Under the pieces are notes generated by a model, which had not been told where the DNA came from, searched no databases, and saw nothing but the letters and a program-made list of their open reading frames with translations. DNA of 64,000 bases, from assembly GCA_000092065.1 (NCBI GenBank), contig CP000591.1. One strand, written 5' to 3'. The stretch's first letter is position 1; each line of letters begins with the position of its first letter. A program made the translations under genes and the position numbers. This DNA comes from Ostreococcus lucimarinus (Eukaryota). Of the stretch, positions 2,168-44,258 are shown in pieces.

Positions 2168-5100
2168 TCACTCTGGAGGTCGCGGCGCGCGGCGAAATTC
2201 TCGCGGAACCTTCGTCGTGCCGTACCTAGGAGCTGTGAACGTTGGTCGCTCATTGAGCGCTGCAATGTTTGAACTCACGACTACTTCGCTTGCCTCGTTA
2301 TTTGCGCTTTCTATCGACCGTTGACGTCGGAAGTTTTCTCCACCGTACCAACGATCGGAAGCCGCCTCTCGTTTAGCGAGTCGATCGGCATGGAGCGCAC
2401 TTCTCGCCCTGCGCTGTCGTTCGAGTCTTTCCGTCGGTGGTGGTGGCGGCGGATGACGCACAATCTTCGGAGTCGCCTGATCCGGGACCCTCTTAAATCC
2501 TGTGGTGCCTTTCACCATCGTCATACGACCTCCGATGGGTGGGGCCGGCCCCTTGCTCGGATCGGAATCGCGTTCGATTTCTACTCTACCGCCTCGCGTT
2601 GACTTTGCCTGGCGGTGCGAGTTTCCTGAATGTTCCCTTTCCTTCATTTTACGCCAGAACTCGTTCAATCGAAGCTTGGATATCGTCTCATCCTTCTGGC
2701 GTTGCCTCTCGACAGAGCTGTGAATGATTGCACTCACGTTGTGCAGCGTCTCGCGCGAGGGGGCCGCGCCACGTACATCTCGCACATCGCTACTTTCGTC
2801 GTAAAGCGTGATTGCCGTGAGAGCTGAATCGTCCGACAATAGCGCTCGCATATCACTTATGCCGCGCTCGGCCGCCGCGCGAACGCCGGCGTTGTCGTCG
2901 GTGTTTACGATTTTCAAGAGCACGGCGATAAGCTTGTCGGTGTCTTTTTGTAGCCCTTGTACTTTGATATCGCCGTATAGACGCCGATACATCGTCTTTG
3001 ACATCAACGCTCCCCCGGGCATTTTGCGCTTTGCCGCGTCCACGAACCTCTCGAATGCAGCATCCGTGTACGACCCCGTTACGGGTACCTCAAAGTCATA
3101 AAAATTGCCCTCGGTTCCCCATACGAAGAGAGTAATCAAATCCACCAAGGCGTGTATCGAGAGTTCACGCGTCTCAGCTTCATCGTCGATCAGCATACCG
3201 TACAACGCATCGTGCACAAACTGCGCCGCCGACATAGAAATGAAAGCTTTGTAAGATTTTTTTGATACCTCGCCTTCGTCAGATTTTGTATTCATCACTC
3301 GGTAAACTGCGCTCATCTCCAGTTTAATCGATTGATGAAGAAGCTCGATGGCGTGAATTTTCTCTCGTTCTTTACCGGGCTCCATACTAACGATCAAGTG
3401 AGAGAGAGCGCTCAAAAACTCAGATCTGCACGCATCTGCGTTCGTCAGCGCGTAAAGGATTTCAGAGACAAACGTCTCCTTGGACGATCCAGCGTGCGCT
3501 TCCATACATTCAAAGAGAACTTTCAATCCATCGACGGCAAACACGCTCGGTCCCGCGTCACCAACTCGAACTAAAGTCGCGAGAGTCCGAATGGAATAGA
3601 ATGATATCTGCTTGTCCGTGCTTAGTGAGGCGTCGAGCAGCGTCTTCATGAAATCATGCGCGAGCTCAAGTCTTTCTTCATCCGCCTCGTTTTGCAACCT
3701 CCCGACGGCGGCATAATAACCCAGAGAACTGAACCAATTCAATTCAGGTCTATTCTTCGCTTTGACTTCTTGACGTAGCCAGCTACGCGCGACGTAAGTC
3801 ACGCGCTCAGCCTTGTCTAGTCTGCGGACCTCATCCGTGTCCGGATCCCTCACGTGCGTAATGGCTTGAGTGAGCTTTTTCGCAATCGGTCTCGGTGGAA
3901 TCTCGAACGCATCGTCAATTATTTGACGAAACATTCTCGCAGATACGACGTAATCTTCGCCATACATATCCAAATCAATGTCATGAGCTTTAAACAAGAG
4001 CGTCGACATGAGGTTTGCGAAGTCAAAAGACTGAATGCACTCCATCGATACCGTCGCCACGGTCGCTTGAAACGTTTTACTCTCCCCACCCTTGATGCAG
4101 TCTTTAACCGTGGAGACAATCGATTTGACCGCCTCCCATGTCGACGCTGGACTATCATCGTCGCACCAAAGTGCGATCTCTACCGTTCCCTGGACATACG
4201 CATGTATCACGCTTCTGATGAATCCTTCGCCGGCTACTTGGAGAAATTCTTGGTCTGGATCATCGATGATACAATGCATGATGATACCGAGCTCCTCAAA
4301 AGCGTCACTAGCTGTATCCCACGCGTCTCCAACGTCTTCATTCTCGCCGTCTTTCGTCTGCGAGGCCCTTGGCATGTTCGTCTTCTTCACCAAGGGAGAG
4401 AGCAATTGAGTGCGTTGCTCTGTGCTGAGAAGGTTATAAAACGCCACGAGCGCGACGACGCGATCTCTTCTATTCTCTGCCTCAACTTGTTCTTTGATAA
4501 ACTCCGGCGTCATGATCTTCTCAACCTTTTCCACTTGCTCTGGATCGCTCAATTTTTCAAGCTCTGAGCGAATGCACTTGTGATCTCCAAGACTATGATT
4601 GAAGACACGCACCATCACCATCGCGATCAACGTCATGATGATGCCAATCACAACTCCCGGGCGCGTCCAGTTTGAACCACCCGTGTGTGGAACTAAGCCA
4701 TGAGACATCCAAGGTGGATTATTGAAAATTCTCGAGAAATAGGTGACGACGGCGAACATAAACGCGCCACCGAAAGCACCAGCTCTCGATTCATTCCGCT
4801 TTTGCCCGAACCCGCGCAAAGACTGAATATTCATGTGCGCCACGAGTAAAACGAGGCAGACTACTACTGGCATGATATTTCGCAACGAGTTCAGACTTTC
4901 GAGTCGCGCCACGGAATCAAGTGCAGGGACGCCATGACCCGGAAGTTCACCTTCCATGTACGCCGCGATCGTAGCCAAGGAGACCTTCAAAAAGATGCTT
5001 AACATCTCAAAAATTGGGACGGGGCGTAAGTTGGGTTCAAGCGTCTCCGATACCACAGCCATCTTCATCGATACTGCAATCGCGCCGAGGCCAACGAAGA

Positions 5101-7006: not shown

Positions 7007-7319
7007 GGATTCGCTCGCCTCGGACGCGCGCGCGCGCGCCCGCGCGCTCGCGCGCCCGCGCGCGCCGCCCGCGCGCGCGGCGCCGAGCGATGACATCGCG
7101 CTACGCCTCGCGCATGCTCGCGAGACGACGGATCGCGGGCGACGCCGTGCGTCGCGGTTTACCGTCGCGCTGCAAACGGTCGATGACTCCGTCAGAACGC
7201 GACGACGACGAAGACGACGACGAAGACGACGAAGACGCGCGCGCGCGCGCGACGGAGGCGCGGCGAAACGCGCGTCGGCGTCGCGACGACTGCGCGGCGC
7301 GAACGCGCGCGTGACGGCG

Positions 7320-19742: not shown

Positions 19743-21545
19743 CTAACGCTTTTTGCTGAAATAATTCGTAATTTCGTTCTTACGCTTCACGCCGCCACCG
19801 GTGGACTTGTCTAACAAGCCCATGGACGCTCGAATCTCGCGCTGAATCGCCTCCGGGAGCTCGGCCAACACGTTTTTGTCGATTTGATCAGCCTTGATCG
19901 GACTCGCCGCGGGCGTCGCCGACACCGACGCCGGCGCCTTGGCTGCTTTCGTCGCGTTCTTAAACATCTCCACGACGTCGCCGCTGTCTTTTTCGAGCGA
20001 CACGAAATTTGACGCCGACACGGACATCCCGGTGATCGACCAACGCTCGCGACCACTGGCCCATTTCGAGAGCAACGTGAGCGCGTCTTGCGCCATTTCG
20101 TCCGCGCCAGGTCGCAAAGGACACCGTCGCGAGCAATGCCCACTGCTCGTCTCGCGCTCATCCGGGCTCGAAAGACCTAAAGTCAACAGCTTTGGCACGC
20201 GATTCCACTCTTCTTCGTCCGCCTCGCACCGATCGTTCAACTCGGCGGTGAGTTCGGCGAGCCAGTGCTTGGCGCTCGCGATGGAGCGAATCGCCAACGC
20301 CCCTCGAAACGTCTTCCCGGTGCCGATGCTTTTCGGCATCTCGCGCGCTTTGACAGGGTCATCATCTAAACCTAAAGACACTTTGCGCACCCACTGCGCT
20401 TTTTCTTCCCCACAAACTTCCTCGAGCTTGCGCAGCGGCGTCCTCGCGAGTTCGCCGATGGTTTTCACGTTTAAACCATCCGCGAGCTCGCGTCCAAACT
20501 TGGCACCTAAACCGCGAATGCGGTCGATGGGTAATTCATCTAAAAGCGTCGACGTGTGGTCGGGACAGAGTACCGTTTGCGACGCCGGCTTGTTCATCCC
20601 ACTCGTCAGCTTGGCGAGCATTTTGTTCAACGCGATGCCCGCGCTCAACGTGTACCCGAGCTCGTCCACGCACGCCTTGCGAAGATTGAAACAAATGTAC
20701 GCCCCCGCGGCGAGAAGTTTCTCTTCCTCTCGCCATTCGCTCTCGTCTCTATTCCACCACGCCACGGACGCCTCATCAGGAGGTCGCGGTCGAAAATTTC
20801 GCATCGGATCTTCTTCTTCCTTCGCCGCCGCCTCGACCGTCGCGTCCCCCGCCGCCGCCGCCTCGACCGACGCGTCCCCCGCCGCCGCGTTCTCGATGGT
20901 CTCCTCCACCGCGCCCGCGCCCAGCACCGGTCCATCCGCGCTGCCCGCCCGCAGCGCCTTCTTACTCACGTATCCTTTCCCGCTCACCGCGCTCGCGCCC
21001 GCCGCGTGACTCGTCCTCGCCTTTTCCAAAATCGTCGCCCACGCCGTCTCCTCCAAAACCTTCTTCGCGCTCTCCGTCAGATCCAAGTACGCCTCGTCGA
21101 TGCTCGCCCGCTCGATCGTCCCTCCGCGCGCCAGCACCGCCGCCACCTCGCGTCCCGCCTCCCTGTACAGCGTCAAATCCGCCTTCGACCGCCGCGTCGG
21201 CACCTGCACCACCGCGCACGCCGGCGCCAGCGCCCTCGCCTCGCGTCCTCGCATGTTCCGCTTCACCCCTCTCGCGCGCGCCTCGTACGACACCGCGATC
21301 AACGAGTGATTTTCGAACCCATCGCGAAGCTCTCGATCGTCGTCCGGCGCCAGCGCGCGCACGCCGCCGCGCTCGAACGGATTATACTGCACCACCACCA
21401 GCGGGACATCCTCCGCCGACGCGCGCCCGTCGCGGCGCCCCGCCGCGGTCTTCGCGCGCAGATCGCGGCGCTCGACCTGGCAGTAAAACGCGTCGAGGTC
21501 CAGGTGCGCGACGACGCGGTGCGTCGCGATCGCGCGCGTCGTCAT
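19743..21545 (-). CDS. POLH: DNA polymerase eta (Y-family translesion polymerase)
   Basis: N-terminus VAHLDLDAFYCQVE and SIDEAYLDLT (catalytic Asp/Glu motifs of the Y-family palm). HhH region GLGAKFGRELADGLNVKTIGELA. C-terminal UBZ-like/PIP-like tail ending KRKNEITNYFSKKR. Confidence 0.85.
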   Translation of the reverse strand: MTTRAIATHRVVAHLDLDAFYCQVERRDLRAKTAAGRRDGRASAEDVPLVVVQYNPFERGGVRALAPDDDRELRDGFENHSLIAVSYEARARGVKRNMRGREARALAPACAVVQVPTRRSKADLTLYREAGREVAAVLARGGTIERASIDEAYLDLTESAKKVLEETAWATILEKARTSHAAGASAVSGKGYVSKKALRAGSADGPVLGAGAVEETIENAAAGDASVEAAAAGDATVEAAAKEEEDPMRNFRPRPPDEASVAWWNRDESEWREEEKLLAAGAYICFNLRKACVDELGYTLSAGIALNKMLAKLTSGMNKPASQTVLCPDHTSTLLDELPIDRIRGLGAKFGRELADGLNVKTIGELARTPLRKLEEVCGEEKAQWVRKVSLGLDDDPVKAREMPKSIGTGKTFRGALAIRSIASAKHWLAELTAELNDRCEADEEEWNRVPKLLTLGLSSPDERETSSGHCSRRCPLRPGADEMAQDALTLLSKWASGRERWSITGMSVSASNFVSLEKDSGDVVEMFKNATKAAKAPASVSATPAASPIKADQIDKNVLAELPEAIQREIRASMGLLDKSTGGGVKRKNEITNYFSKKR

Positions 21546-23237: not shown

Positions 23238-26200
23238 GTGAGGACGAAAAGAGGCGACATGGGGCACGCTTCGAACGATGCGAGCGGTCGCGGTCGACGA
23301 GGGATGACGTCGGGGACGGCGCTGCGAGCGTTGATGGCGGCGAGCGCGGCGACGTTGGCGCGCGCGAGCGCGACGACTTCGACGTGCGATTATTACATGA
23401 CGCCCGAGGGTGAGGGAACGACGATCGGGCAAACCGACGCGGGTACTATCATGAATCCGTTCGGGAGCTTGGAGGAGGCGCAGTTGGCGCTGAAACCGGG
23501 GCAGACGCTGTGCGTGTTGAGCGGGACGTACGAGCTCGACACGTTCATCGGGGCGGAGATCTTGGCGCGAGGTAATGCCGACGCGCCGATTACCATTCGC
23601 GGCTACCGCACGAGCGATGGTGCGGATTTGCCAAAGTTCCGGTTTAGCGGTGGTGTTGCGTTGGATTTTAGAGGTGCCGAGTACGTCACCGTAGAAGACA
23701 TTGAAGTCGACGGCGGCGCCTCGGAGGCGACTACGGAGGATGTCGTCAAAGCGTGGTGGAATGGTGAAAAGCTCGCGCACGTGGGTAGGACTTGCTTTAG
23801 AATTGGTCAAAAGTCGCGACACGTGAGCATCAAGCGAAACGCGTGCCACGACGTCAGTGAGGTGGCGGTAAACGTCGTCGACGCGTTATATTCATCAATC
23901 AAGCTCAACGTGTTTTATCGCATCGGTTGGTTTGGTGTCGGCGATATCGCTGCGGTGAAACGCACATACACCGCCGCGGTGGACGAAGACGAAGAAGATG
24001 ACTATCGGCTGGATGTACAAGGCAACGCGATCTGGGGCGTCGAATCGCACTTGTATGAGCGAACGGAGAATGCTTCGTACTCCAAATTTGTGAAGACTTT
24101 CGGCGTCGCTTTGGACGCTGTGGCGGATGAAGATCTACGAATGCGATTTTCCGAGAACGTCATCGCGTTCAACGCTAACGTTGGGATGAAGATCGCGCGT
24201 TCGCCGTACGTTGTCGTGAGCAAGAACACGTTCTACTCCGATCCCACCGCCGGCGCGTCTTTACTCACTGACTCAGCCATGACTTCGAAGTTAATTTTGA
24301 AGGATAACATCTTCTCCACGAGTCAAAGTGCTGACTTCGCGCTCGATGTGGGCGCATCATATGGTACCGATATCGATCCTGATTTCTTCCGCAACAACAT
24401 TGTCGCCGGAGGCGGTGCGGTTCTCGATGGCAACCTCACCGTCACGCGTATCTCGTCGCAACTCTTCGCGGATGCCGCGCACGGCAACTTTACCCTTCTT
24501 CCGGCGGCCGAAGAAAGTATCAACGCCACTACGGTACCAGGAGTGGATGCGGCGGTTTTGAAGGTTCTCGCTCGCGTGATGAAGGATTTCAATGCCGGTA
24601 CGATGGCGAGAAGCGAGTGGGTGGCGAATCACAAGACGCTCACCCAGTTGATCATCAAAACGGCGCCGTCGATGTACACAAAAATCACGTCCACGCGAAA
24701 AGGTCCGGAAGACGCATCGGTGCAGTTCACTGATCCCGTCACGAATGAGTTTTTCACGTTGAAACTCAATCCTGCGTACGCGCGCGATCTTTTCGAGCGC
24801 GGTGCGTCTCCGTTGGACGGCTCCGAGGATGAGAACGCGTATCCGTTGGATGGCCCCGACGATGAGAACGCGTATCCGATCTCTGTGGGTGCACTCGGTC
24901 AAGGTTACCCGGCGAATAACACTGGTTACCCGTCGAATAGCACTGGTTACCCGTCGAGTAGCACTGGATACCCGTCGGATAGCACTGGTTCTGGTTACCC
25001 GTCGAATAGCACTGGATACCCGGCAAGCGGATACCCGGCGAATAGCACTGGATATCCGGCAAAGGGATACCCGGCGAACAGCAACGGATATCCGGCAAAG
25101 GGATACCCGGCGAACAGCACTGGATATCCGGCAAAGGGATACCCGGCGAACAGCAACGGATATCCGGCAAAGGGATACCCGGCGAACAGCACCGGATATC
25201 CGGCAAAGGGATACCCGGCGAACAGCAACGGATATCCGGCAAAGGGATACCCGGCGAACAGCACCGGATATCCGGCAAAGGGATACCCGGCGAACAGCAA
25301 CGGATATCCGGCAAAGGGATACCCGGCGAACAGCAACGGATATCCGGCCAACAGCGATGGGTATCCAGCGACGCGGACGCCAGCCATGCCGGAAAGCATC
25401 GCCGAACAGATAGAAGACGCCGTCGCGGACGCCGTCCAGCAAATTCAAAGTGTCACGGCGAACGCGACTGAGGAGATTGTACAGGCTGAGGCAGAAGCGG
25501 TGACTAACGTGACCGAGACGGCGGGAGACGAAGAAGGATCCGACGTGGATGAGTTGTTGGCGGACGCCACAAATGACGTTTCGCCACCGCCGCCACCGCC
25601 GCCGCCGCCGAGACGCAAGCCGCCGCCGCCGCCGCCGCCGTACCCGGGCACGGTCCAACCGCCGTCGCCACCGCTTCCGCCGGCACCTCCTCATGTGGAT
25701 AGCGAAGCTGGCCTCGTGAATGGTCGCATCGTCATTCCCGTAAGGGACACGCTCAGAGATTTCCTTCTGGAGAGAAATGAAGTAGTGAACGCGTCCTCGA
25801 TGAGCTTGGACCATCCGGATGAAGATGTATCCGAAATCGAAGATCTTGAGCCGGAGTGCTACAATCCTCCGCGCGGATGTCCGGCCATATTCCATTTGAG
25901 CAACTACAGAGCTCAAGCGGTGTCAAAAGTGTCTGATGACTCGTCCACGTCGTACTCGAGCGACCGAGCGGCGTTCGCGGCGTATCGTGGCGAGCGTTTC
26001 GCTACTGAACAGTCACGAGGTTCGGTGCAGGAGTTCGATGCACAGCGGCCGGTGGAAGATAGTCCGTACGGACCGAACATTGATAGAGCCTTCTTTGCCG
26101 CACTTGGGATGCAAAAGGAGTCCGCATTCAAACCGAATGAGATCATCGCCCCGATGGCTGTCCTCATGGTCATCGCCGCCGCGGTTGTCGCGAGCGAGAG

Positions 26201-27038
26201 ATTGACAAAGCGAGGTCCAATCGAGGAACGCGCTTCGTTGTTAGCGTCGACTTCTGACGTGGCCGAGCGTGAGGCGAGCAAGTTGCGAGCGATGAAGACG
26301 AGAAGGAATGCGATGGTCGCGTCGGCTCTTGCGGGTGTGTTCTTCGTCGCCACCGCCACTTCGTCGACGCCCGGAGCGGCGGCTGTGATGCGCGCAAAGA
26401 AGGAGGTGGCGCAGCTAGGCTCTAAGCTAGCGGACTGTGCCGGTAAGTTCTACGTTGTGAACTTACCTTTCTCTTCGTGCGCCGTCAAGGGAAGCGAAAT
26501 TCCTGTCGGTGCTCGGCCATTCCCTCTCGAAGACTTCATCAAATTTGAGGCTTTCGTCGTCGCGAGGCTCGGTTGGGGTGGATTCTGGTCTATGAAATCA
26601 TCGGGCTATGAAATCCGTTCCGCCGCTCGTGCGCACGTCATCGAGGAGCGTCGCGTGAAGAACGAAGAAAATGTCACCAACGGCTTGATGGATTATCATC
26701 GTCAGTGCTTGCGAACAAAGACGTGGTGCCTTGAAGAGGGGAGCGAAAACGCGTGCTGCAGGGACATGCCGGTGACGGCTGTTGAACAAGAAGAAGATGA
26801 CCTGGAGTTCAACACGTACGACTCGATCCTTCGCAATTTGTGCGGATGCGCGTTGATGATGGATAAGACACCGACGGGATGCGGACAAATCGACGCTCTT
26901 GGACGAGATTTGTACTGCGATAGAATGCGCGCGATGGGGATGGGCGACGATCTCCCCGCATGCTGCGATGCTCCGAACCCGTTCCGCGTGCAGGAATGCC
27001 TATGCAAAGGAGACGAGAATCACATGGCGTACACATAA
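23238..27038 (+). CDS. Large secreted/cell-surface glycoprotein: signal peptide, right-handed beta-helix (pectin-lyase-like) domain, GYPANSTGYPAK tandem repeats, polyproline tract, TM helix, Cys-rich C-terminal domain
   Basis: 1266 aa. Signal-like MTSGTALRALMAASAATLARASA (the true start may be this M, ~23304). Beta-helix hallmarks: NAIWG..., ENVIAFNANVGMKIARSPYVV, KDNIFS. Repeat block 24903-25372. PPPPPPPPPRRKPPPPPPPY at ~25577-25640. TM PMAVLMVIAAAVVASE. C-terminus rich in Cys (CCRD.., CGCALMMDKTPTGCGQ.., CCDAPNPFRVQECLC). Confidence 0.7.
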   Translation: MRTKRGDMGHASNDASGRGRRGMTSGTALRALMAASAATLARASATTSTCDYYMTPEGEGTTIGQTDAGTIMNPFGSLEEAQLALKPGQTLCVLSGTYELDTFIGAEILARGNADAPITIRGYRTSDGADLPKFRFSGGVALDFRGAEYVTVEDIEVDGGASEATTEDVVKAWWNGEKLAHVGRTCFRIGQKSRHVSIKRNACHDVSEVAVNVVDALYSSIKLNVFYRIGWFGVGDIAAVKRTYTAAVDEDEEDDYRLDVQGNAIWGVESHLYERTENASYSKFVKTFGVALDAVADEDLRMRFSENVIAFNANVGMKIARSPYVVVSKNTFYSDPTAGASLLTDSAMTSKLILKDNIFSTSQSADFALDVGASYGTDIDPDFFRNNIVAGGGAVLDGNLTVTRISSQLFADAAHGNFTLLPAAEESINATTVPGVDAAVLKVLARVMKDFNAGTMARSEWVANHKTLTQLIIKTAPSMYTKITSTRKGPEDASVQFTDPVTNEFFTLKLNPAYARDLFERGASPLDGSEDENAYPLDGPDDENAYPISVGALGQGYPANNTGYPSNSTGYPSSSTGYPSDSTGSGYPSNSTGYPASGYPANSTGYPAKGYPANSNGYPAKGYPANSTGYPAKGYPANSNGYPAKGYPANSTGYPAKGYPANSNGYPAKGYPANSTGYPAKGYPANSNGYPAKGYPANSNGYPANSDGYPATRTPAMPESIAEQIEDAVADAVQQIQSVTANATEEIVQAEAEAVTNVTETAGDEEGSDVDELLADATNDVSPPPPPPPPPRRKPPPPPPPYPGTVQPPSPPLPPAPPHVDSEAGLVNGRIVIPVRDTLRDFLLERNEVVNASSMSLDHPDEDVSEIEDLEPECYNPPRGCPAIFHLSNYRAQAVSKVSDDSSTSYSSDRAAFAAYRGERFATEQSRGSVQEFDAQRPVEDSPYGPNIDRAFFAALGMQKESAFKPNEIIAPMAVLMVIAAAVVASERLTKRGPIEERASLLASTSDVAEREASKLRAMKTRRNAMVASALAGVFFVATATSSTPGAAAVMRAKKEVAQLGSKLADCAGKFYVVNLPFSSCAVKGSEIPVGARPFPLEDFIKFEAFVVARLGWGGFWSMKSSGYEIRSAARAHVIEERRVKNEENVTNGLMDYHRQCLRTKTWCLEEGSENACCRDMPVTAVEQEEDDLEFNTYDSILRNLCGCALMMDKTPTGCGQIDALGRDLYCDRMRAMGMGDDLPACCDAPNPFRVQECLCKGDENHMAYT
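24903..25372. repeat. Coding tandem repeat, 36-nt unit (GYPANSTGYPAK / GYPANSNGYPAK alternating, effective period 72 nt), ~13 units, most regular at 25035-25330
   Basis: Near-identical units ggatacccggcgaacagcaccggatatccggcaaag / ...aacagcaacgga... The NST variant is an N-glycosylation sequon; the NSN variant is not. Confidence 0.9.
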
Positions 27039-27197: not shown

Positions 27198-28223
27198 TCA
27201 TTCCATCCCCGTCACTCCGCCTTCCGTGATCTGGAATTCAGCTTCGTCTTCTTTCAGAGTCGGACCTTGAAGCACTTTGAGCACGCGCGCCTCGGCTCTG
27301 CCCTTTCTTACCATCAGACGAATCGTAGACGCATGGGCCAAAACGTGCCCCCCGATCGCCTTCTTTGGTTCAACTCCCGCGAAAGCCATGCCCCCCGGGT
27401 CAGATTGGACTTGATTAGTGAGCACGACGGCGACGTTGAATTCTTCGGCAATTTTTCGCAAGCGAGAGAGGAACTGATTGAGTGTCTGCTGTCGTTCGCT
27501 CAACTCTCCTCTCGCGACGTAATCCACTCGAAAAATCGCCATGATGCTGTCGACGACGAGTAACTTGAAAGGTTCTTCAGCCATTTTCGCGCCAATAGCG
27601 ATGAGAGCATGCATCATTTGATCGACGGTATCCACGCGAGCGACCATGACGTTCGATAAAACGGCGTCAGCGTCCAGTCCAAAGCGGTTCGCGATTTGAA
27701 CGAGGCGGTCTCCGCGGAAGGTGTTTTCGGTATCGATCCACGCCACCTTGGCGCATCCACCGCCCATTTCCACCGGCATTTGCGTCGTAACGGCAATAGT
27801 GTGACATAGCTGGGTCTTGCCGCATCGCCACTCGCCGTAAATCTCCGTGATCGCTCGACTTTCAAATCCGCCGCCCAAGATCGCGTCCACCGCGGCGGCT
27901 CCAGATGTAATATGCACCACATCCTTGCGTCGCTCCGCATCCTCCGCCGCCGTGACAAATCCCCCAGCTTCGCTCTCCGGTAACAGTTTGACCGCACCTT
28001 CCAAAACCTTATCCGCTTTAGCGTCAGAGAAGCCTTTGACCGCGATGATCGCCTTTCGCGGAAACATCAACAACTGTCTCACCGTGACGAATCCCGCGTC
28101 TCTCAACTTTTTTATATCCGTCGCCGACACCCCGCTCTGCTGCAGCGCATCGATGGACACGATGTTCGACTGTTCCTCCGCAAACGTCACCCCGGCGTCT
28201 TCTTCCACGTCAACCCTACGCAA
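27198..28223 (-). CDS. DMC1: Meiotic recombinase DMC1 (RecA/RAD51 family)
   Basis: 341 aa. Walker A GEWRCGKTQLCHT. DMC1-type diagnostic stretches match DMC1 rather than RAD51: WIDTENTFRGDRL vs RAD51 IDTEGTFRPERL; DSIMAIFRVDY vs DSATALYRTDY. Also ERQQTLNQFLSRLRKIAEEFNVAVVLTNQV and the N-terminal HhH IDALQQSGVSATDIKKLRDAGF. Confidence 0.88.
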   Translation of the reverse strand: MRRVDVEEDAGVTFAEEQSNIVSIDALQQSGVSATDIKKLRDAGFVTVRQLLMFPRKAIIAVKGFSDAKADKVLEGAVKLLPESEAGGFVTAAEDAERRKDVVHITSGAAAVDAILGGGFESRAITEIYGEWRCGKTQLCHTIAVTTQMPVEMGGGCAKVAWIDTENTFRGDRLVQIANRFGLDADAVLSNVMVARVDTVDQMMHALIAIGAKMAEEPFKLLVVDSIMAIFRVDYVARGELSERQQTLNQFLSRLRKIAEEFNVAVVLTNQVQSDPGGMAFAGVEPKKAIGGHVLAHASTIRLMVRKGRAEARVLKVLQGPTLKEDEAEFQITEGGVTGME

Positions 28224-28701
28224 TCGAGCGTCGTTCGTCTTCGTCAGTCGCGCGCGCCGATTCGATCGCGTCGATTCGTCTCTCGGAGTCTCGGAACCTC
28301 ATAAACGTCGTTTCTCCCCTCATCCGCGCTCTCCGTCTCCGCGAATCGTCGCGCGCGAGCGAGACATTCCTCCGCGCACGCACATCGTCTCCTCCGCCGC
28401 CGCCGCGGCGCTCTTCTTTCGTCGCGCCGCCGTCGTCGACATGTTCGCGTCGCGCGCGGTGTCTCGGAAGAGGTGCCGAGTTTCGCGTCGGTCGTCGCGT
28501 CGCGCGCGCGCGTCGCGCGCGCGCGCCGGCGCGCCGTCGGGCGATCGGGCGGTGCGCTCGCGTCGCGTTCGCTCGCGTGCGAGCTCGCGAGGTCGTCGTC
28601 GCGCGCGAGGTCGCGCGTCGAAAAGTGAGGCGCGCGGCGACGGGCGCGCGGCGTTCCATTCGTCGTCGTCGTCGTATCAAAGCAATGCAATCGCTAATTC
28701 T

Positions 28702-33552: not shown

Positions 33553-35757
33553 TCAAACGGTGTGCGCGATGCGTAAGGACTCGTGGTCCATGAAATCTGC
33601 CAAGCCAGGGATCGGGTTGGGGTGCCGGCGGATGGCTTCGCGTAGCTCCTCCGGCTCGACGACGAAGACGATGTTCTTGTACTCCTTCAAAGCCGCGCCC
33701 CTGACGCCTGAACCGGACTTGTGCGCCGTAGCGATGCCGAGCGTGAGTAAATTTTCAAAAGCTCGAACGAGGACAGAGCGCGAAGAGTCTTTGGCGTGCG
33801 TGAGCTGCTCTCGAGATCCCATCTCTCTGAACTCTTGCGCGAGCGCCTCGAATGTGAAGGAAGGACGCTTTCGCGCAACGTGCATTCTGTACATTGCGAC
33901 GCAGAGTAGCAGCTCCAAAGTCGTAGCGCCGATGAGTGAATCTACGAATGGATTCCTATATAGACTGTCCACGGCCTCGACGATATCATTGCTCGTTATC
34001 TTCCCGAGCTGACGGTTAACGCGCGAGAGAATCGCGCACGCCACTTTACTTACAGACGCCGGCGTGTTCTCCAAACGACCGTAGTGCTCGAGCTTTTCCT
34101 TCACCACAGGACTTTGCATCGCGGCGCGAAGATGCAAGTTCCACTGTTGCACATAGTCCGGATCGCTCGGGCACAAGTATTTGTCCTTGTCGGAAAGCTT
34201 GAGTGCCTTTGTCACGCCCTCCACCATGGACACCGTGTTCCCAGGCGGCGCGACGACGATGCGTCGATTGGAGAAACGAGATGCGACACGCTTTTCGAGC
34301 AGTCTATCGACACTGTGTCTGCACGTCACACCAACGACAGCGGCCTGCACGGTGGATTGCTGGAGTAAATCTGTGATGGCGTACAGAAGCGTTTGCTTCG
34401 AGCGCATCGCAAAGAGCTCAAAATCATCGAGGACGAAGATGACGCCGCGCTGTCCACCCAACAGCTTCAGCATCTCCGTCATGAAAGCAACGTTTTCCGC
34501 AAAACCAGTCTGGCGACCGGTGACATCCTCATTCATATTGGGGCACAACTGCGAGGCAATCTTCTGCATTGCGATGCGTTCGTCAGCGTGAAGCAAACCG
34601 CTAAGATGGACTGTCACAACCTTGCCCGGATGCTTGCTCTCCAAAATCTTCAACGCGGAGTCTAAGACGAGCGATTTCCCACTTCCTCGATTACCCACCA
34701 TGAGGACGGAGTTGTTTTGACCGCCAGACACCGTGTCTTCGAGGATGTTCAACAAGTGGTCTCGATGCGCCTTCAAGTTTGGCGCAAACTCCAAGCCGTC
34801 GGCGTCGATCGGGCGTTCACGATTGACGCCGAACAGGCGACGCCGCAAGAGTCGAATCGCCGCATCACCACCTCGCTCGCACGGTGGCTCGACTTCCTCT
34901 TTACGCGCTGCCAAGACTAAATCGAGCCCAGTCGGGGCGTCGCACAGCGCCGCCGAATCCAGTACTTGCGTGCCTCCGGCGTAATCATCCTCGTAACACT
35001 GCGTTCCACCATCGTCTTCGTCGAATTCCTCCGTCTCCGCCTCGGACTCGCTCTCGCAATCCGAGCCCAATCCCGCCACGACGTCGTCCACGCGACCGAA
35101 AATAGTCGGACTCGCCATCGAACCGCCAATGTTTGGCGAAAACGCCGCGCTCGCGCCGCCGCTCTTCCCCGGCGTCACCCTGAATTCCCGTTTTCTCCCG
35201 CTCGTCGACGGCGGCGACGTCCTTTTCACTCGATCCATCCTCGGCGTTCCATCACCCGCCGCGTCGTCGACATCGAAATCGATATTCTTCACCGGCAGCC
35301 CGCTCGAGCCCTTCTTCCTCGCGCGTTCGCCGTCCTCCGCCGCCGTCGCCGTCTCGCCCCCATCCTCCCCGAGCGACTCTCCCGCCGCCCCTTTCGCGCC
35401 ATTCATTATGTTTTCAACCTCTTTCAGCACCATCCCTCGCCGCTTCGCCGTCGTTCGACCGATCGTCGCCGCGACGGTTTCGCCGCCGCTCGCCGTCCCC
35501 GTCGTCGCCGTCCCCCCCATCCTCTCCCCGCGCTCGCCCGCGTCGCGCCCCGCCGCGGACGCCACGGGTGTCGTCGATCCTCGTCGACGCTTTCCCGCCG
35601 TCGTCGCCGCTCGCGGCGCGTCGTCGTCGTTTAAGACGTCGTCGTCGTCGAACGCGCGGTCGGCGTCGTCATCGTCGCGTCGCGCGCGCGCGCGCGCTCG
35701 ATCGCTGAACACGGTGCGCGCGACGGAACCGAACAAGCCCTGGATCGCGCTCTGCAT
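33553..35757 (-). CDS. ORC4: Origin recognition complex subunit 4 (AAA+), with ~300-aa disordered N-terminal extension
   Basis: Walker A VLMVGNRGSGKS. Compare human ORC4 [22 protein letters not shown] / [23 protein letters not shown].../ [27 protein letters not shown] with VHLSGLLHADERIAMQKIASQL / FVLDDFELFAMRSKQTLLYAITD / VVGVTCRHSVDRLLEKRVASRFSNRRI here. Confidence 0.85.
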   Translation of the reverse strand: MQSAIQGLFGSVARTVFSDRARARARRDDDDADRAFDDDDVLNDDDAPRAATTAGKRRRGSTTPVASAAGRDAGERGERMGGTATTGTASGGETVAATIGRTTAKRRGMVLKEVENIMNGAKGAAGESLGEDGGETATAAEDGERARKKGSSGLPVKNIDFDVDDAAGDGTPRMDRVKRTSPPSTSGRKREFRVTPGKSGGASAAFSPNIGGSMASPTIFGRVDDVVAGLGSDCESESEAETEEFDEDDGGTQCYEDDYAGGTQVLDSAALCDAPTGLDLVLAARKEEVEPPCERGGDAAIRLLRRRLFGVNRERPIDADGLEFAPNLKAHRDHLLNILEDTVSGGQNNSVLMVGNRGSGKSLVLDSALKILESKHPGKVVTVHLSGLLHADERIAMQKIASQLCPNMNEDVTGRQTGFAENVAFMTEMLKLLGGQRGVIFVLDDFELFAMRSKQTLLYAITDLLQQSTVQAAVVGVTCRHSVDRLLEKRVASRFSNRRIVVAPPGNTVSMVEGVTKALKLSDKDKYLCPSDPDYVQQWNLHLRAAMQSPVVKEKLEHYGRLENTPASVSKVACAILSRVNRQLGKITSNDIVEAVDSLYRNPFVDSLIGATTLELLLCVAMYRMHVARKRPSFTFEALAQEFREMGSREQLTHAKDSSRSVLVRAFENLLTLGIATAHKSGSGVRGAALKEYKNIVFVVEPEELREAIRRHPNPIPGLADFMDHESLRIAHTV

Positions 35758-37286: not shown

Positions 37287-40200
37287 TCAACCGCGAGTCG
37301 TCGCTACGTTGCGGTTGGATTGCACCCAATCCACGGTGTCGCGCAAGATTTTGAAATCGTGCGCGTCGGCGATGTTGGAAAAGACGCGCAAGTCGTCGCC
37401 GAGCGCGCCGGGCTTGGCGGAGCACGCGTACAAACCGCCGCAGGCGCAGCGATTGGCGAGATGTCCCACCTTGATGCGGCCGTCGCGCGCGCATTTGAGG
37501 TCTTGAAGCTGATATTTTCGAACGCGCTCGTTCACCTCGGCGACGAGAGCGCCTTCGATCCATTGCATGTCGTACGGTTGACCGCACGGCGGGCCGTGAT
37601 CGTCGTCGCGCGCCGTGCACGCCCAGTGACCGGCGGCGAGGTCTGGGTCACGGCAGAGATCCAAGTCTCTGCAATCAGAGCAAGCGGAGCAAATAACGTC
37701 TCGGAGCGTAAAAGAGACGCATGGCTCGACGAACTCTGCCTCAGGGGAGAATTCGGCGACTTGAATCATCTTGAGCGCGTTTCGTCGGAGCAACGACACC
37801 GGACCCTCGACGCGAGCGTCGAGCGACAACACGGCAATCACCGTTCTCACAAACGCCAACGCTGGCGTGCCACGAAGCTTCTTGGACAGGTTTGCGCCAG
37901 GTGGCGAAGGGAATTGGTGCTCGGGCGGCGAGCGCGGACCGGCGAGTCCGAGGACTCGTTGGATATCCTGTGCGTAACGCAGCAATTTCGGCCCGAAGTG
38001 CGATTCGAGTTGTTGCTCCAACCAAATCACCTTGTCTTCTTCCAGGCGATCCAAGTCGCGCGCGTTGTGACCAAAGCCCGGGGTCGGTGGTGGTTTCTTC
38101 TCCACCGGAGCTCCGACGTCAGAATCCGAGTTCTCTTCGTCCGAATCGTCGCTGTCGCTCATAGCGCGGTACTTCACGGGCGTGCGCCCGTGCAATGGAC
38201 CGTCGCTTTCCTCCTTGTCGTGCTTCCAAGGCAACAATAAGAACTCGCCGATTATGGCGTGAAAGTGATCTTGAATCGCCTCGGGTAGGAATCGTGCGAT
38301 GTTCCAGTGCATGTCCAGCGCACCTTCACTATTGCGCGTGGCAAGAGGGTCGAGTTGCGAGTCATGCGGCGCGATGGAGTCGTGCCACTGGCTCTCGCCC
38401 GGAAGGTTGACGGCGGAAATCCCGGCGTAATCGAACGGTCCACGAAACAGAAGCGAGTGCCATTGCTTGACTCGATCGAGTTGCAGCCATGAGAAGAGTT
38501 CACGCTGGTGCAGGGCAGTCTTGAGACCTTCCACGCATGCGGAAGCACTCGCGAGATCGTGCTTGCCAGTCGCGATGATGATTCTTCGCATGTCCGCGTA
38601 CACGACTTCGACTTGAAGCTTGCGAAGTTCAGCCAACAGCAAGGTGAAGACTTTCTTCATGCAGAGCTCGACCAAGTTCTTCAACGCCGGATCGCGCAAC
38701 GCCGAAGACGGGCTAAAGAGCCAGCGATGAATCTGCGAAAGCAATTGATCCGCGTATGTATTGTGATGATCAGTTGCGTCGCGGAGCCAATTATCGACGA
38801 GCTTGTTCAGCGTCTTGAACGCGCCCGCAGCTTCGTGTCCGCCCATGCGCGTCGTGCCCTTGGTGCCAGTCTCGAAGCCCAACAGTGCGCCTTGCTCGAG
38901 ATCGTTCAAAATGCTAGACTTGGAAATGGCGCACACAGCCAAGTGATGCACTTGCAATTCCACACAAACGCTGCGATAAGCGCCGGGCGCGGTGACTTCC
39001 ATGCGCGACGCACCGTATGCATCGTCCAATCCGCTCAGAGACACGGCGCTCGCGCCGCCACCCAAATCAGGCTCGCCACCGGGGCCAGTCCACAACACCT
39101 GTTCGGCGTCGTGCAATGTGCGGGCGAAGAACGCGTCCGCGGTGTGCACCCACCAATCCGATTTCAAGTTGCCCACGGGGATGTGCGCATAACTCGCAAT
39201 CTCGACGTGCTCCTTCAACCACTCGGCGCTTTCGACGACGCGCGCCGAAGCAATTTTCGCGGCATCAAGTTGCCATCCCCGGGCTGCATCTGTGCTCAAG
39301 TCACTGTCCGAAAGATTTGGCGGCCTGAAAACGATGGGAAGACGTCCAGAGGCGGGCATCAAGGCGCTCAATCTCCCAGCCAAACCTTCTCGCACGGACG
39401 AAGTGTCTTGAGCCGGATCGACGCCGGCGCCTGGGGGAGCTTGAACGAGAAGCACCGTACCACCGCTAGATGCGGAAATGTAGGCGCCGATAGCGTGGTT
39501 CAAATGCTTGCCAACTTGTTCCATGTTTCTCGCGTACAACACGTTCCATTTCGAGGCGGCTTCTGCTCTCGCTTCGTCGTCAGTTTGCTCGTCTCCGCTC
39601 ATCGAGTGCATAAACGACGACCAAAGCTCGGGGGTGACCTCTCGAACACCTTTACCCGGTTGATGAACGATCACCGTGCCTTTGCTTTCGCGGCTGTTGT
39701 GCAGCACGTAAATTCCACGTCCTTTATCACCAGAAACTCCAGCAAAGTAGAACGTGATGTGGGACAATTTCGGCAAATACGAGCTGACTTCAGCCGTCGC
39801 CTTCATTTGAAACATGTTCATGCCATAGGACTCGTCGCCAATATCGAGCGCTCGCTTTTGTTCCGACTTTTTCACCGCCATGACGCAACCGATGTTGTAA
39901 ATGAATCTATCAATCAAAGGCACGTTCTTTTCGTATACGCCGATGACAGACGGGTCTGCCAAAAGCGCAGCAATTTCCAACCCACTCGCGAAATTTCGCT
40001 CTTGCACGTTAATTTCGTACAAGTGGGGCGCGATGAAACCGCGCGGAAGAGTTGCCGTGATTCGTCGCTTTCCTTCCAAGCCGAGATCGCCTTCGCGATC
40101 CGTTTCGCGCGTGGCGATGACGAGGCGACGGGGCACGTCCACCTTGATGACTTGCATCGTACCGTTCACTAGCACCCAGACGGCAAAAATTCCTGGGACT

Positions 40201-43200
40201 TGCGTTTGTTCCACCTGGATGATGTGCATCGTCGAGTGTGCGATCGTTTCCTCGCGTGATTCCACAAAGGATTCGAGACCGAATGCACCCGATCGTCTCT
40301 TTCTTCGCATGACGCCTCCCTCGCGTTCAATCTGAGCTCGCTCTTTTTCGTCCTCGACGCGTTCGCGCTTGATATTTGCGCGCAGAGTTTTCCATTTGGA
40401 TTTGTAATGCTTCAACCAGCCGTCGTAATCGGTCGCTCTGTCCGGTGCCGCCGCGCTAGCGCTGGCCGAACCTGGAGTCTTCGGCGCTTCTCCAGAAGGC
40501 GTCGCCCGTTGGTCCGGCGTTTGCGGTGCATCACCATCTCTTCGAAACGTTCTAACGCGCGGACGAGTTGGCGTCGACTTGGCGCCGCCGTCCTCGATGT
40601 CGAGAATATTCAAATCTTTACCCGCAAGCGGCGCACCATTCGCGAATTGCGTCTGAAACATCGTCTTCAAGTTGCGCTGAGAAAACTTGTCATTCTTTTC
40701 TCGAATGCGCTTGTGCAACCAATCGGGATGCTTCACGTCTGGGCATGGGTTTTCTACGCCCTGTAAAGCCGCAGGGATGCTGATGATTTTCTGAATGGCC
40801 CCAGCAAGACGCGTCTTGTAGTATTCCCAATCCACCATCTCGCGCATGTTTGGCATTTCGTCGTCGGCGCCTGGAAGCGCGTCCTTGGTCCACTCCTTCA
40901 AGTATGCGCGCGCCACGGCCGTTTCGGCGTTGAAAATACTCACTGGAATAGCCCGTGCCGACGTCGGAGCTCCGAGCGGTTTCTTCGAGATGATGTACTT
41001 ACACACAAGACCCTTGTCCTTAATCAAATCGGCGCCGAGGAATTGGGACAGACGATGCGCTGTGGTGAGAGACGTCGACTTGCGATCGCCGTAATCGATG
41101 GCGGGTTTGCTCATGACGCTCGATTCAGAAATGAACTCTAAGAGCTCTTCGTCGTCAAAGTTCCTGCCTTGCGTTTTGAGCATGTCAAACCAACGATTGC
41201 CGATGTTTCCGACAGCTTTGTACACCTCTTCCAGCGTCTCGCCCTTCAAAAAGTAGTCAAACACCTCCGCTTGGAAGACTTTGATCAACTTGAGCTCGCC
41301 TCGACGCTTGAGTTCGAATCCTTTCAATTCTTCCAACGAGCCGTCCTCGTTGAACACGGCGTATCGTTTTTTAATGAGCACGCCCTCTTCCTTAGAAGCT
41401 GGAAGAATCATCGCCTTATACGGACCGTCGACTTCAAACTCGATGCTCATTTCTGAGGAAACCTCGTACGAGGACTTGCCATCGACCACCTTCAACGTTT
41501 GGTACTGGTCGTTCGTATTCTGCAGCGCAGTCATACGATTGAGAACGACGCACGGGTACGAAATCTTGTATCCTTTGTTCTTATTTGGGAGCGTAAACGT
41601 GAATGTCTCCGGGAAAGCGCGGGGCAAGCAGCACCAAATACCATCCGTATCCAATTCAAGCGGCTTGCCGATGTCATCCACCAGTTGCTTCGCCATTTGA
41701 ATAATCTTTGCACCTGTGTTCGTGACGACCCCAGCCATCTCCATCGAATACCACCGCGCGCCTTTACGCATGACGTAGCCGTAAAAGGAGTTCAAAATAC
41801 ACTTGTGCGCCAGCTGAAGCGAATCATACAACACAACCATATTTGCCGCCTTTTGGATTTCGATGATGTTCCCGCTCTGTTTCGCTTCGTCCAAATTGTT
41901 CTTCCACTTCTTATTCTCCCCTTTGTACACGTAGCGACGATCACGAAACGCCTTCACGGTGTCGATGTAGAATGGGTTTTCTCGCATGCAGATACTCGCC
42001 TTTTTCGTCGCCGTCACCGGTTTCTCCATAACCTTTCTATAAACTTTTTGCGTATACAACTTCAGGCGCTGCTTCTTCTGCTCTTGTTGCTCTTCGTACG
42101 GAAGTTCAGCCCACGTTCGTTGTGGGCCACCGGGATGAGACGGCGCAAACTTATCAACTTGCAATTGCGCCTTGATGGCGGCATACTCGCTCGACGTCGA
42201 GGCAAAGTGCTCGCCGCGCCAAACCCATTCCATCTCACGCAGGCATCCCTTACCCGGTCGGTTGTAATCGCACGCGGCGCATACATCCTCATTGACGATA
42301 GCCGCCGGCTGCAAGCGGTTCGTCAAAATAATGTTCGGGTACATTGCTGCTACGTCCAAGTGATAAATCAGCGGTTCCATGTTCAAATTTGGGTTGTCGC
42401 GAAGGTACTCGAGCTTCTCGGCGATTTGCGCACGAATCTCATCGTAATCTGCGCAGTCATCCTTCCCCAGACCTTTTCCTTCGACCCGAAGGGCGTAGTC
42501 CAAATCGTCGTCGAGATTGTCAAGTAGTCTCTGATACCCTTCTGGATTCAACTTGAAGTCGCACGGGATGTCTGAACGGAACACGCCCGCCTCGAGACAC
42601 TCCACGTGACCGCCGATGTACGTTTCACTATTCAAGAGGTGACCTTCGTAGTATTTTTCACCGGCGCTGACTTGTTTGTTCGGGCAAACGATGTTTCCGT
42701 GGTACGCCTCAACCATGAGCAAAGCCTCGCACAGGGTACCGGAACCTTTGCGAAGGACTTCGTCCGGCGAGAGCGGAATAATCGTCGACAGCGCAAAGAT
42801 GAAAGGGTGCACGTACTTCATGTACAAGTAGTACGTACTCACGGCATCGGAAACGGAATACGACGCCATCATCTGAGGGTGACTTTGCGCGTACGGTAAC
42901 ATGTCTTCCGGGTCCACTTCGACCGGATCGTACTTTAACTTTGCCTTGGTCACCGCCTTCAAGCCGTGCGATCCGGCGGGGAGGTAGGAATCGCGCTTCA
43001 CCCACGCGAAGCAATCCAGGTGCAGCGCAGAATTACTTCGACATTCACCCGACTGTTCGCACTTGAAACCAATCTCACGGTACATATCCATCCCGTTCTT
43101 AGTCGCTCTAGTTTCGATGAATGGGAAATCGAAATAATCACCGTTGTACGTGACGTAAATGCTCGGTTGCGTCTCGCGCATATGATCAAACCACGTGCGG

Positions 43201-44258
43201 ATGAGCGCTTGCTCGTTCGGCACGTTCCAAACGATGAACGGGCCTTTGTACTCGGGCTTTGGCGTGTACTCGAAATCTTCTACGTCCTCGCTCACGATTT
43301 CACGGTTGATTATCAAATACCCTTGGCCGTCCAACATGTACGAAATCATAAACACCTGGTCGTGCTCGGCGTCTGGAAACTTTAACGGAAGCTTGGTGGT
43401 TTCGATATCGAACGCGCACACGCGAACTTCACCGCGATCTAACATTTGCTCTTGCAACGTCAGCGTCACCGCGCCGTGCTCGGCGCGCACGCTGTACCAT
43501 TTCCCGCATCGCACGTCGGTGTCGATCATGTATCTCATGTGATACGGCACGTCGTACTCGCGAATGTCAATCATCGCCTCTTCGTAATCCGTCAACGCCT
43601 TCTTCTTCGGCTTGATCCCCGCGTCCAGGCTTTCCTGGTGCGACAACGCTTCGTACGCCGCCGCCGCGGACGATTTCTTCTTATTCTTGGACACTATGGG
43701 CAAGATTTCTCTGCGCACGTCCATGAGCTCTTGCGTCGTCGCGAACGAAACCTTCAAATACGTCTGCTGCAATCCGCTCAGGTGATTCTTCAAATCCAAA
43801 TCCTCCTTATCCACCATCTCCACGTCCAGCACTTGTTCGCCGTATTTCCTCCTCAACAGCGCCTCCACCTCGTGCTCGCACCCAGTCTTCGTGGCGAGAT
43901 AGAAGTACGGCGCGTACTTGACCTGCGCCTTGAACGTCGACCCGTCCTGCGCCATAAAGTAACAATTCACCGCCGCGTACGCCTTCCCGCTCTCCTTATC
44001 CTCCACTTGCGTGCTGCTCGCATTTATCATCCACCCGATTCGATCCTCCCCGTCCACGTGCGTCCCGAATCCGAGCTCCTTCTGCAGCGCGTCCTCCTCC
44101 GCCGCGACTTGCGCCTTCGTTCGTCCATCCGCGCCCGCGCCGCCGCCGCCGCCGCGTCCACCGCCGCCGCCGCGCCATCGCGCGCCGCGCGCTTCTCCGT
44201 ACAGATTCGCCTTATTCCCCGTCGTTCCACTGAACGCGGGCTTTCGCGCGGGCGCCAT
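37287..44258 (-). CDS. POLE: DNA polymerase epsilon catalytic subunit A
   Basis: 2323-aa continuous ORF. Exonuclease motifs AFDIETTK (Exo I), YNGDYFDFPF (Exo II). Polymerase motif A LDVAAMYPNIILTN, motif C ELDTDGIWC. C-terminal zinc modules CSACSDC...C and C..C. N-terminal Gly-rich extension. Confidence 0.95.
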   Translation of the reverse strand: MAPARKPAFSGTTGNKANLYGEARGARWRGGGGGRGGGGGAGADGRTKAQVAAEEDALQKELGFGTHVDGEDRIGWMINASSTQVEDKESGKAYAAVNCYFMAQDGSTFKAQVKYAPYFYLATKTGCEHEVEALLRRKYGEQVLDVEMVDKEDLDLKNHLSGLQQTYLKVSFATTQELMDVRREILPIVSKNKKKSSAAAAYEALSHQESLDAGIKPKKKALTDYEEAMIDIREYDVPYHMRYMIDTDVRCGKWYSVRAEHGAVTLTLQEQMLDRGEVRVCAFDIETTKLPLKFPDAEHDQVFMISYMLDGQGYLIINREIVSEDVEDFEYTPKPEYKGPFIVWNVPNEQALIRTWFDHMRETQPSIYVTYNGDYFDFPFIETRATKNGMDMYREIGFKCEQSGECRSNSALHLDCFAWVKRDSYLPAGSHGLKAVTKAKLKYDPVEVDPEDMLPYAQSHPQMMASYSVSDAVSTYYLYMKYVHPFIFALSTIIPLSPDEVLRKGSGTLCEALLMVEAYHGNIVCPNKQVSAGEKYYEGHLLNSETYIGGHVECLEAGVFRSDIPCDFKLNPEGYQRLLDNLDDDLDYALRVEGKGLGKDDCADYDEIRAQIAEKLEYLRDNPNLNMEPLIYHLDVAAMYPNIILTNRLQPAAIVNEDVCAACDYNRPGKGCLREMEWVWRGEHFASTSSEYAAIKAQLQVDKFAPSHPGGPQRTWAELPYEEQQEQKKQRLKLYTQKVYRKVMEKPVTATKKASICMRENPFYIDTVKAFRDRRYVYKGENKKWKNNLDEAKQSGNIIEIQKAANMVVLYDSLQLAHKCILNSFYGYVMRKGARWYSMEMAGVVTNTGAKIIQMAKQLVDDIGKPLELDTDGIWCCLPRAFPETFTFTLPNKNKGYKISYPCVVLNRMTALQNTNDQYQTLKVVDGKSSYEVSSEMSIEFEVDGPYKAMILPASKEEGVLIKKRYAVFNEDGSLEELKGFELKRRGELKLIKVFQAEVFDYFLKGETLEEVYKAVGNIGNRWFDMLKTQGRNFDDEELLEFISESSVMSKPAIDYGDRKSTSLTTAHRLSQFLGADLIKDKGLVCKYIISKKPLGAPTSARAIPVSIFNAETAVARAYLKEWTKDALPGADDEMPNMREMVDWEYYKTRLAGAIQKIISIPAALQGVENPCPDVKHPDWLHKRIREKNDKFSQRNLKTMFQTQFANGAPLAGKDLNILDIEDGGAKSTPTRPRVRTFRRDGDAPQTPDQRATPSGEAPKTPGSASASAAAPDRATDYDGWLKHYKSKWKTLRANIKRERVEDEKERAQIEREGGVMRRKRRSGAFGLESFVESREETIAHSTMHIIQVEQTQVPGIFAVWVLVNGTMQVIKVDVPRRLVIATRETDREGDLGLEGKRRITATLPRGFIAPHLYEINVQERNFASGLEIAALLADPSVIGVYEKNVPLIDRFIYNIGCVMAVKKSEQKRALDIGDESYGMNMFQMKATAEVSSYLPKLSHITFYFAGVSGDKGRGIYVLHNSRESKGTVIVHQPGKGVREVTPELWSSFMHSMSGDEQTDDEARAEAASKWNVLYARNMEQVGKHLNHAIGAYISASSGGTVLLVQAPPGAGVDPAQDTSSVREGLAGRLSALMPASGRLPIVFRPPNLSDSDLSTDAARGWQLDAAKIASARVVESAEWLKEHVEIASYAHIPVGNLKSDWWVHTADAFFARTLHDAEQVLWTGPGGEPDLGGGASAVSLSGLDDAYGASRMEVTAPGAYRSVCVELQVHHLAVCAISKSSILNDLEQGALLGFETGTKGTTRMGGHEAAGAFKTLNKLVDNWLRDATDHHNTYADQLLSQIHRWLFSPSSALRDPALKNLVELCMKKVFTLLLAELRKLQVEVVYADMRRIIIATGKHDLASASACVEGLKTALHQRELFSWLQLDRVKQWHSLLFRGPFDYAGISAVNLPGESQWHDSIAPHDSQLDPLATRNSEGALDMHWNIARFLPEAIQDHFHAIIGEFLLLPWKHDKEESDGPLHGRTPVKYRAMSDSDDSDEENSDSDVGAPVEKKPPPTPGFGHNARDLDRLEEDKVIWLEQQLESHFGPKLLRYAQDIQRVLGLAGPRSPPEHQFPSPPGANLSKKLRGTPALAFVRTVIAVLSLDARVEGPVSLLRRNALKMIQVAEFSPEAEFVEPCVSFTLRDVICSACSDCRDLDLCRDPDLAAGHWACTARDDDHGPPCGQPYDMQWIEGALVAEVNERVRKYQLQDLKCARDGRIKVGHLANRCACGGLYACSAKPGALGDDLRVFSNIADAHDFKILRDTVDWVQSNRNVATTRG

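Follow-up and report, generated by a model that had tools for sequence, protein, structure and literature searches.

Two-exon DMC1 of the picoalga Ostreococcus lucimarinus: identity, conservation and bearing on a sexual cycle

Results

Gene structure and source organism

The minus strand of a 64,000-nt stretch of DNA, referred to here as the window, carries a gene that is very probably the two-exon DMC1 of Ostreococcus lucimarinus CCE9901, an orthologue of the meiosis-specific strand-exchange recombinase. A preceding sequence-only reading had placed an intact recombinase gene at 27198-28223. Its open frame stood: 341 codons run uninterrupted over 27198..28223 (−), with no internal stop and with the TGA at 27198..27200. 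The 5′ end of this interval, however, is not the start of the gene, as what was flagged is exon 2 together with 8 intronic nt (28216..28223), and a short first exon had been missed. Reading the upstream sequence and splicing it in silico gave the following model:

28384..28442 (−): DMC1 exon 1, 59 nt; ATG start, 19 codons and 2 bases (MSTTAARRKKSAAAAAEET + AT)
28216..28383 (−): spliceosomal intron, 168 nt, phase 2; GTGCGT...ACTGAC...TAG
27198..28215 (−): DMC1 exon 2; 339 codons and the TGA stop

The ATG lies at 28442, and exon 1, which contains a conserved basic patch (RRKK), ends in ...ACGAT. The intron is delimited by a GTGCGT donor at 28383 and a TAG acceptor ending at 28216, with ACTGAC as a branch-point-like motif 32 nt before the intron 3′ end. 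Splicing unites AT|G as a methionine codon and yields a CDS of 1077 nt encoding 358 aa, and an exact-sequence look-up matched this product to XP_001420481.1 (ABO98774.1; UniProt A4S4R7). These records thus describe the same gene, agreeing with our model in 358/358 residues and in the two-exon structure. The TTG start that had been chosen mechanically for the 341-codon ORF was rejected, given that the two-exon model reproduces the RefSeq protein exactly; the first in-frame ATG after the upstream stop is codon 53 and falls within the conserved N-terminal domain. Public entries for A4S4R7/XP_001420481.1 are titled ‘predicted protein’ or ‘Uncharacterized protein’, with the DMC1 label found only in the literature, and it is of practical relevance that the public protein record carries nothing beyond ‘predicted protein’.

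The same look-ups settled the source organism. The product of window ORF 396..2138 matches XP_001420308.1 of O. lucimarinus CCE9901 exactly and is encoded on the same 593,542-bp contig as the DMC1 protein, and the 90%-identity clusters of three more window ORFs include O. lucimarinus RefSeq proteins, albeit with shorter gene models. Because both this ORF and the spliced DMC1 product equal O. lucimarinus RefSeq proteins, the initial assignment to a Micromonas-like alga was mistaken in genus and family, the source being O. lucimarinus CCE9901 (Mamiellales, Bathycoccaceae). Despite the wrong genus, the host remains a Mamiellales picoalga.

In base composition, the window ranges from 0.51 to 0.71 GC in 2-kb bins over its whole length; DMC1 itself lies at 0.55-0.56, and the bins from 28001 onward, which span its 5′ flank, reach up to 0.67. 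A 13-nt tandem repeat (CGCGTCGCGCGCG, 3.8 copies) occupies 28496..28543, within the 259 nt that separate the stop codon of DCP1 from the ATG of DMC1. The product of a GTG-started version of the window ORF (27198..28208, 336 aa; P0251) is found on 558 contigs, of which the longest measures 104 Mb. This exceeds any Ostreococcus chromosome and suggests Ostreococcus DNA within, or contaminating, a large public assembly.

Domains and motifs of the recombinase

Profile searches, motif reading and alignment located the following elements:

27993..28136 (−): N-terminal helix-hairpin-helix (HhH) domain (Pfam HHH_5, ORF aa 30-77)
27948..27959 (−): FxxA polymerisation motif FVTA, in the linker; aligned with GFLTA of human DMC1 and GFTTA of RAD51
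27210..27932 (−): RecA-fold ATPase core (Rad51 domain; Pfam PF08423)
27813..27836 (−): Walker A, GEWRCGKT (motif reading and alignment)
27546..27563 (−): Walker B, LLVVDS (motif reading and alignment)
27480..27530 (−): DNA-binding loop L1 region, RVDYVARGELSERQQTL; ERQQ where RAD51 has ARQM
27345..27407 (−): DNA-binding loop L2, QSDPGGMAFAGVEPKKAIGGH; D-P where RAD51 has Q-V

The predicted protein thereby has every functional element of a strand-exchange recombinase, namely the HhH domain, FVTA, Walker A/B and the L1/L2 loops. Pfam PF08423 covers aa 98-338 of the ORF (E = 2.1e-102; 241/244 profile positions), and weaker, overlapping matches were to RecA, a KaiC-type ATPase and AAA_25. HHH_5 scores 22 bits, under its 27-bit cutoff; the N-terminal region aligns to the human DMC1 N-terminal domain (from residue 11), and the alignments to the NCBIfam models TIGR02238 and TIGR02239 both begin at model position 1. 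In the RAD51 family, the FxxA motif serves in polymerisation.

The overall layout of an HhH domain followed by a RecA core is that of human DMC1 (PDB 7c98, 1v5w) and of Lilium DMC1/LIM15, to which the window protein is ~53-55% identical and with which it shares the DMC1-type L1 and L2 residues. It differs from the human and plant proteins in Walker A (GEWRCGKT instead of GEFRTGKT), in L1 (VARGEL instead of SGRGEL), in the short basic N-terminal exon of the Ostreococcus gene and in the longer branch on which Mamiellales DMC1 sits. The W/C variant of Walker A, with W and C replacing the usual F and T/S, is common to Ostreococcus- and Bathycoccus-like relatives and also occurs in DMC1 of Gonium and Edaphochlamys. 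As regards VARGEL, SGRGEL is the near-universal form, and the G-to-A change was seen only in the closest Ostreococcus relatives.

Three motifs had previously been put forward as DMC1-specific signatures. All are present (IDTENTFRGDRL, ORF aa 163-174; DSIMAIFRVDY, 225-235; ERQQTLNQFLSRLRKIAEEFNVAV, 243-266), yet IDTENTFR is not specific to DMC1: plant and many algal DMC1s read IDTEGTFR, like RAD51. Diagnostic of DMC1 versus RAD51 are the motifs of the L1 and L2 loops. In L1, the residues at the positions of human DMC1 E241 and Q244 are those of DMC1 (E, Q). In the printed alignment of L2, the window protein reads GGH at a site that is GGN in the RAD51 sequences shown, a difference that failed our diagnostic-column filter.

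Assignment to DMC1 rather than RAD51

Among structures in the PDB, the best matches of the ORF were human DMC1 chains (E = 1.1e-101, 343.6 bits, ORF residues 10-337), as compared to ~318 bits for wild-type human RAD51 and lower scores for archaeal RadA. Against ~5.8 billion proteins, all named top matches were DMC1s (51-58% identity), and they come from land plants, green algae, amoebae, fungi and animals. The NCBIfam models for the two paralogs gave 431.6 bits for DMC1 (TIGR02238) and 377.0 bits for RAD51 (TIGR02239), i.e. a gap of 55 bits, with both scores below the respective equivalog trusted cutoffs (447.7 and 478.05). The shortfall against TIGR02238 probably arises because the Mamiellales DMC1s, on a long branch, are the most divergent of those sampled; we take it to reflect a conservative threshold and do not count it against DMC1 orthology. 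Within the same sample, the Mamiellales proteins are also the DMC1s farthest from RAD51.

Phylogenetic analysis, which the sequence-only reading had named as a check on its assignment, placed the protein in the DMC1 clade and not in the RAD51 clade. We built two neighbour-joining trees on Kimura distances, for which the human RAD51 and DMC1 references were both 100% identical to PDB entries. The first tree (46 sequences, 326 columns; no green-algal RAD51s) separated RAD51 from DMC1 plus the window protein in 300/300 bootstraps. The second (61 sequences) added three DMC1s and 12 RAD51s, of which one is from a liverwort and 11, that of Micromonas commoda among them, are from green algae; it recovered the same split in 200/200. 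In the trees, the window protein is nested inside the chlorophyte DMC1s. At eight positions of the alignment, DMC1 and RAD51 are each fixed for a different residue, including the positions of E/Q in L1 and D-P in L2; the window protein has the DMC1 state in 7/8, the RAD51 state in 0/8 and neither in 1/8. Profiles, PDB and protein-database matches, both trees and these columns thus uphold the earlier call of DMC1 over RAD51.

The chlorophyte RAD51 references, including that of Micromonas commoda, were supplied by a search for a RAD51 separate from DMC1. This search, combining a RAD51 profile scan of metagenome contigs with cluster look-ups, did not recover an O. lucimarinus RAD51, and ten marine RAD51 clusters held no Ostreococcus name among their members. 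One high-GC, intronless locus (L077) was considered as an Ostreococcus RAD51 and rejected, as it is closest to core-chlorophyte RAD51s and not to those of Mamiellales. A distinct RAD51 is, however, present in Micromonas commoda, and two Rad51 homologues have been reported on other chromosomes in Ostreococcus RCC809; it is on these that we base the expectation that O. lucimarinus has a RAD51 besides DMC1. As a separate observation, two seawater metagenome contigs (L075 1191..2159; L076 468..1436) encode a RAD51-like protein with mixed paralogue signatures, having a DMC1-like IDTENTFRPERI and AERQQKL, but GGN and its best overall similarity to RAD51.

That the gene might instead be a RAD51 orthologue, or the sole general recombinase of the alga with a mere resemblance to DMC1, is to us extremely improbable. 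RAD51 (human, PDB 5jzc; Micromonas commoda, ‘Rad51 DNA recombinase 1’) is a paralogous strand-exchange ATPase of the same fold, and with RAD51 and DMC1 being ~50% identical, the 377 bits on the RAD51 model, the score under the DMC1 trusted cutoff and the unrecovered O. lucimarinus RAD51 would all fit such a reading. Against it, RAD51 (~46-48% identity to the window protein) is parted from the window protein by a split that all bootstrap replicates of either tree support and has ARQM and Q-V in place of ERQQ and D-P, not one of the eight diagnostic columns being in its state. Identities point the same way, at 46% to the RAD51 of Micromonas commoda versus 53-55% to the DMC1s of Pedinophyceae, Marchantia and human. 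Micromonas commoda, a fellow member of the Mamiellales, has its RAD51 as a separate gene, and Rad51 homologues on other chromosomes are reported for Ostreococcus RCC809. We therefore retain DMC1 as the identity of the gene.

Conservation across relatives and selection

DMC1 has an open frame in 6/6 environmental relatives (89, 88, 86, 78, 74 and 65% identity). For four Ostreococcus-like loci (L007, L008, L011, L014), we rebuilt the full two-exon model. In all four, a homologous first exon, short and basic, occurs in the same phase (MS[TA][TAS]..., RRKK or KRKK patch), and their introns, 117-139 nt in length, keep a GT[GA]CG donor, a CTRAC branch-like motif, a YAG acceptor and phase 2. The fifth Ostreococcus-like locus (L012) has the same donor, acceptor and phase; its contig contains no start codon, and exon 2 alone was used. 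In the GC-poorer, Bathycoccus-like locus (L016), DMC1 is intronless. Where contigs were long enough, gene order was kept as SUI1 / 2-hydroxyacid dehydrogenase / DCP1 / DMC1 / convergent beta-helix protein. The Ostreococcus-like relatives at 86-89% identity have both DMC1 gene structure and synteny in common with the window.

In pairwise codon analysis, dN was 0.09-0.34 and omega roughly 0.02-0.1, the latter being approximate and of an upper-bound kind because dS is saturated (NG86 at least 1.4 or undefined for several pairs; maximum-likelihood estimates, taken as a guide only, about 3 or more). Together with the open frame in every relative, these values agree with the earlier view of an intact gene, for which a dN/dS comparison had been proposed, and indicate purifying selection with strong constraint on the predicted protein across Ostreococcus- and Bathycoccus-like lineages. 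Among O. lucimarinus-like contigs, the DMC1 locus was 99.7-99.85% identical and contained three CDS variants (two synonymous and one non-synonymous, the latter forced by the choice of loci), too few for a test.

Predicted function and the case for a sexual cycle

By homology, O. lucimarinus DMC1 is predicted to have recombinase activity and a role in meiosis. The protein would load onto single-stranded DNA at programmed double-strand breaks and form an ATP-dependent helical filament by means of its Walker A/B core, FxxA motif and L1/L2 loops. By means of this filament, the protein may then drive strand invasion into the homologous chromosome in a meiosis that would be rare and is as yet unobserved. 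As to when the gene might be expressed, the orthologue named in the literature, O. tauri DMC1 (ostta11g01720), is described as a meiosis-specific recombinase and was found to be marked by H3K27me3 and to show no significant activation in vegetative cultures (bioRxiv 10.64898/2026.08.19.745701). Expression and chromatin data are those of the O. tauri gene only and, carried over from this published orthologue, suggest that DMC1 may likewise be silenced in vegetative O. lucimarinus.

The sequence-only reading had taken a full-length DMC1 to argue for a sexual cycle in an organism in which sex has not been directly observed. The latter statement agrees with the literature on Ostreococcus. The former is the standard published argument for this very organism, for which the presence of the gene counts as indirect evidence; gene and inference are already in databases and the literature, so that the claim is correct but not new. 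The case for cryptic sex from DMC1 was made with the genomes of O. tauri (2006) and O. lucimarinus (2007). According to Malik et al. 2008 (PMC2488364), the O. tauri genes Dmc1, Spo11, Hop1, Hop2, Mnd1 and Msh5 had been reported in 2006. Meiotic proteins have been described for O. lucimarinus (PMC8557840), and Benites et al. 2021 state that they are described for every sequenced member of the Mamiellophyceae, O. lucimarinus among them (Palenik 2007). The evidence for sex has since become stronger through recombination at the population level, candidate loci for mating type and the co-occurrence of mating types; at all Tara stations with O. lucimarinus, Leconte et al. 2020 found its two mating types together. 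Had it been new, the finding would have spoken for cryptic sex in a picoeukaryote that ranks among the most abundant in the ocean. In practical terms, DMC1 with its conserved two-exon structure provides a transcript well suited as a marker in screens for conditions inducing the as yet unobserved sexual cycle.

Two further explanations accept the gene as DMC1 and differ in what it is kept for. One holds that Ostreococcus is effectively asexual and DMC1 a relic, either decaying or retained by chance. Sex was never observed in Ostreococcus, the O. tauri orthologue is Polycomb-marked and unexpressed in culture, and a protein search returned no MMETSP transcript among close relatives, all of which would fit a relic. 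A gene adrift would nonetheless hardly have kept an open frame in all lineages examined, between which synonymous sites are saturated, at an omega of ~0.02-0.1, with catalytic motifs intact and intron signals conserved; as the literature moreover reports recombination in populations and two mating types occurring together, we give this explanation next to no credence. The other holds that DMC1 is kept for a task outside meiosis, for instance homologous recombination in vegetative cells or the hypervariability of a chromosome. Purifying selection indeed reveals that a function is maintained but not which one, and the gene's presence alone is an indirect sign of sex, whereas the co-retention of Hop2, Mnd1, Spo11 and Msh5 in O. 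tauri speaks for meiosis, which leaves the non-meiotic explanation very unlikely. A more specific form of it, in which a conserved but Polycomb-silenced DMC1 may act outside classical meiosis, e.g. in the recombination behind the hypervariable chromosome, a reported means of virus resistance in these algae, we regard as a long shot. Retention for meiosis is the reading that we prefer.

Neighbouring genes in the window

The presence of LIG4 in the same window had been offered as additional support for sex. LIG4 is there, at 6825..10304 (+), with the N, M and C domains of an ATP-dependent ligase and BRCT domains, and the best structural match of its ORF is human DNA ligase 4 (273 bits vs 99 for LIG3 and ~73 for LIG1). 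However, LIG4 is the ligase of non-homologous end joining and, acting in that pathway, is irrelevant to meiosis. A scan of the larger ORFs in the 64-kb window revealed no further meiosis-specific gene. Replication and repair genes in the window besides DMC1 comprise LIG4, DNA polymerase eta, ORC4, the DNA polymerase epsilon catalytic subunit and a DHX36-like helicase, the corresponding ORFs being located as follows:

6825..10304 (+): replication/repair ORF (LIG4)
19743..21545 (−): replication/repair ORF
33553..35757 (−): replication/repair ORF
37287..44258 (−): replication/repair ORF
51440..56164 (+): replication/repair ORF

Their clustering is probably a coincidence in a compact genome. On the strand opposite to LIG4 and overlapping its 5′ part, a 1915-codon open frame (2168..7915, −) without Pfam match represents either an unknown large protein or a spurious ORF driven by GC content. 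Convergent to DMC1 lies the gene of a large, Pel9A-like beta-helix protein (23238..27038, +), whose place next to DMC1, on its downstream side, is conserved throughout the Ostreococcus-like loci. It contains a 36-nt tandem repeat at 24996..25348 (9.8 copies, 95% matches) that encodes GYPANS[TN]GYPAK and is followed by a polyproline tract.
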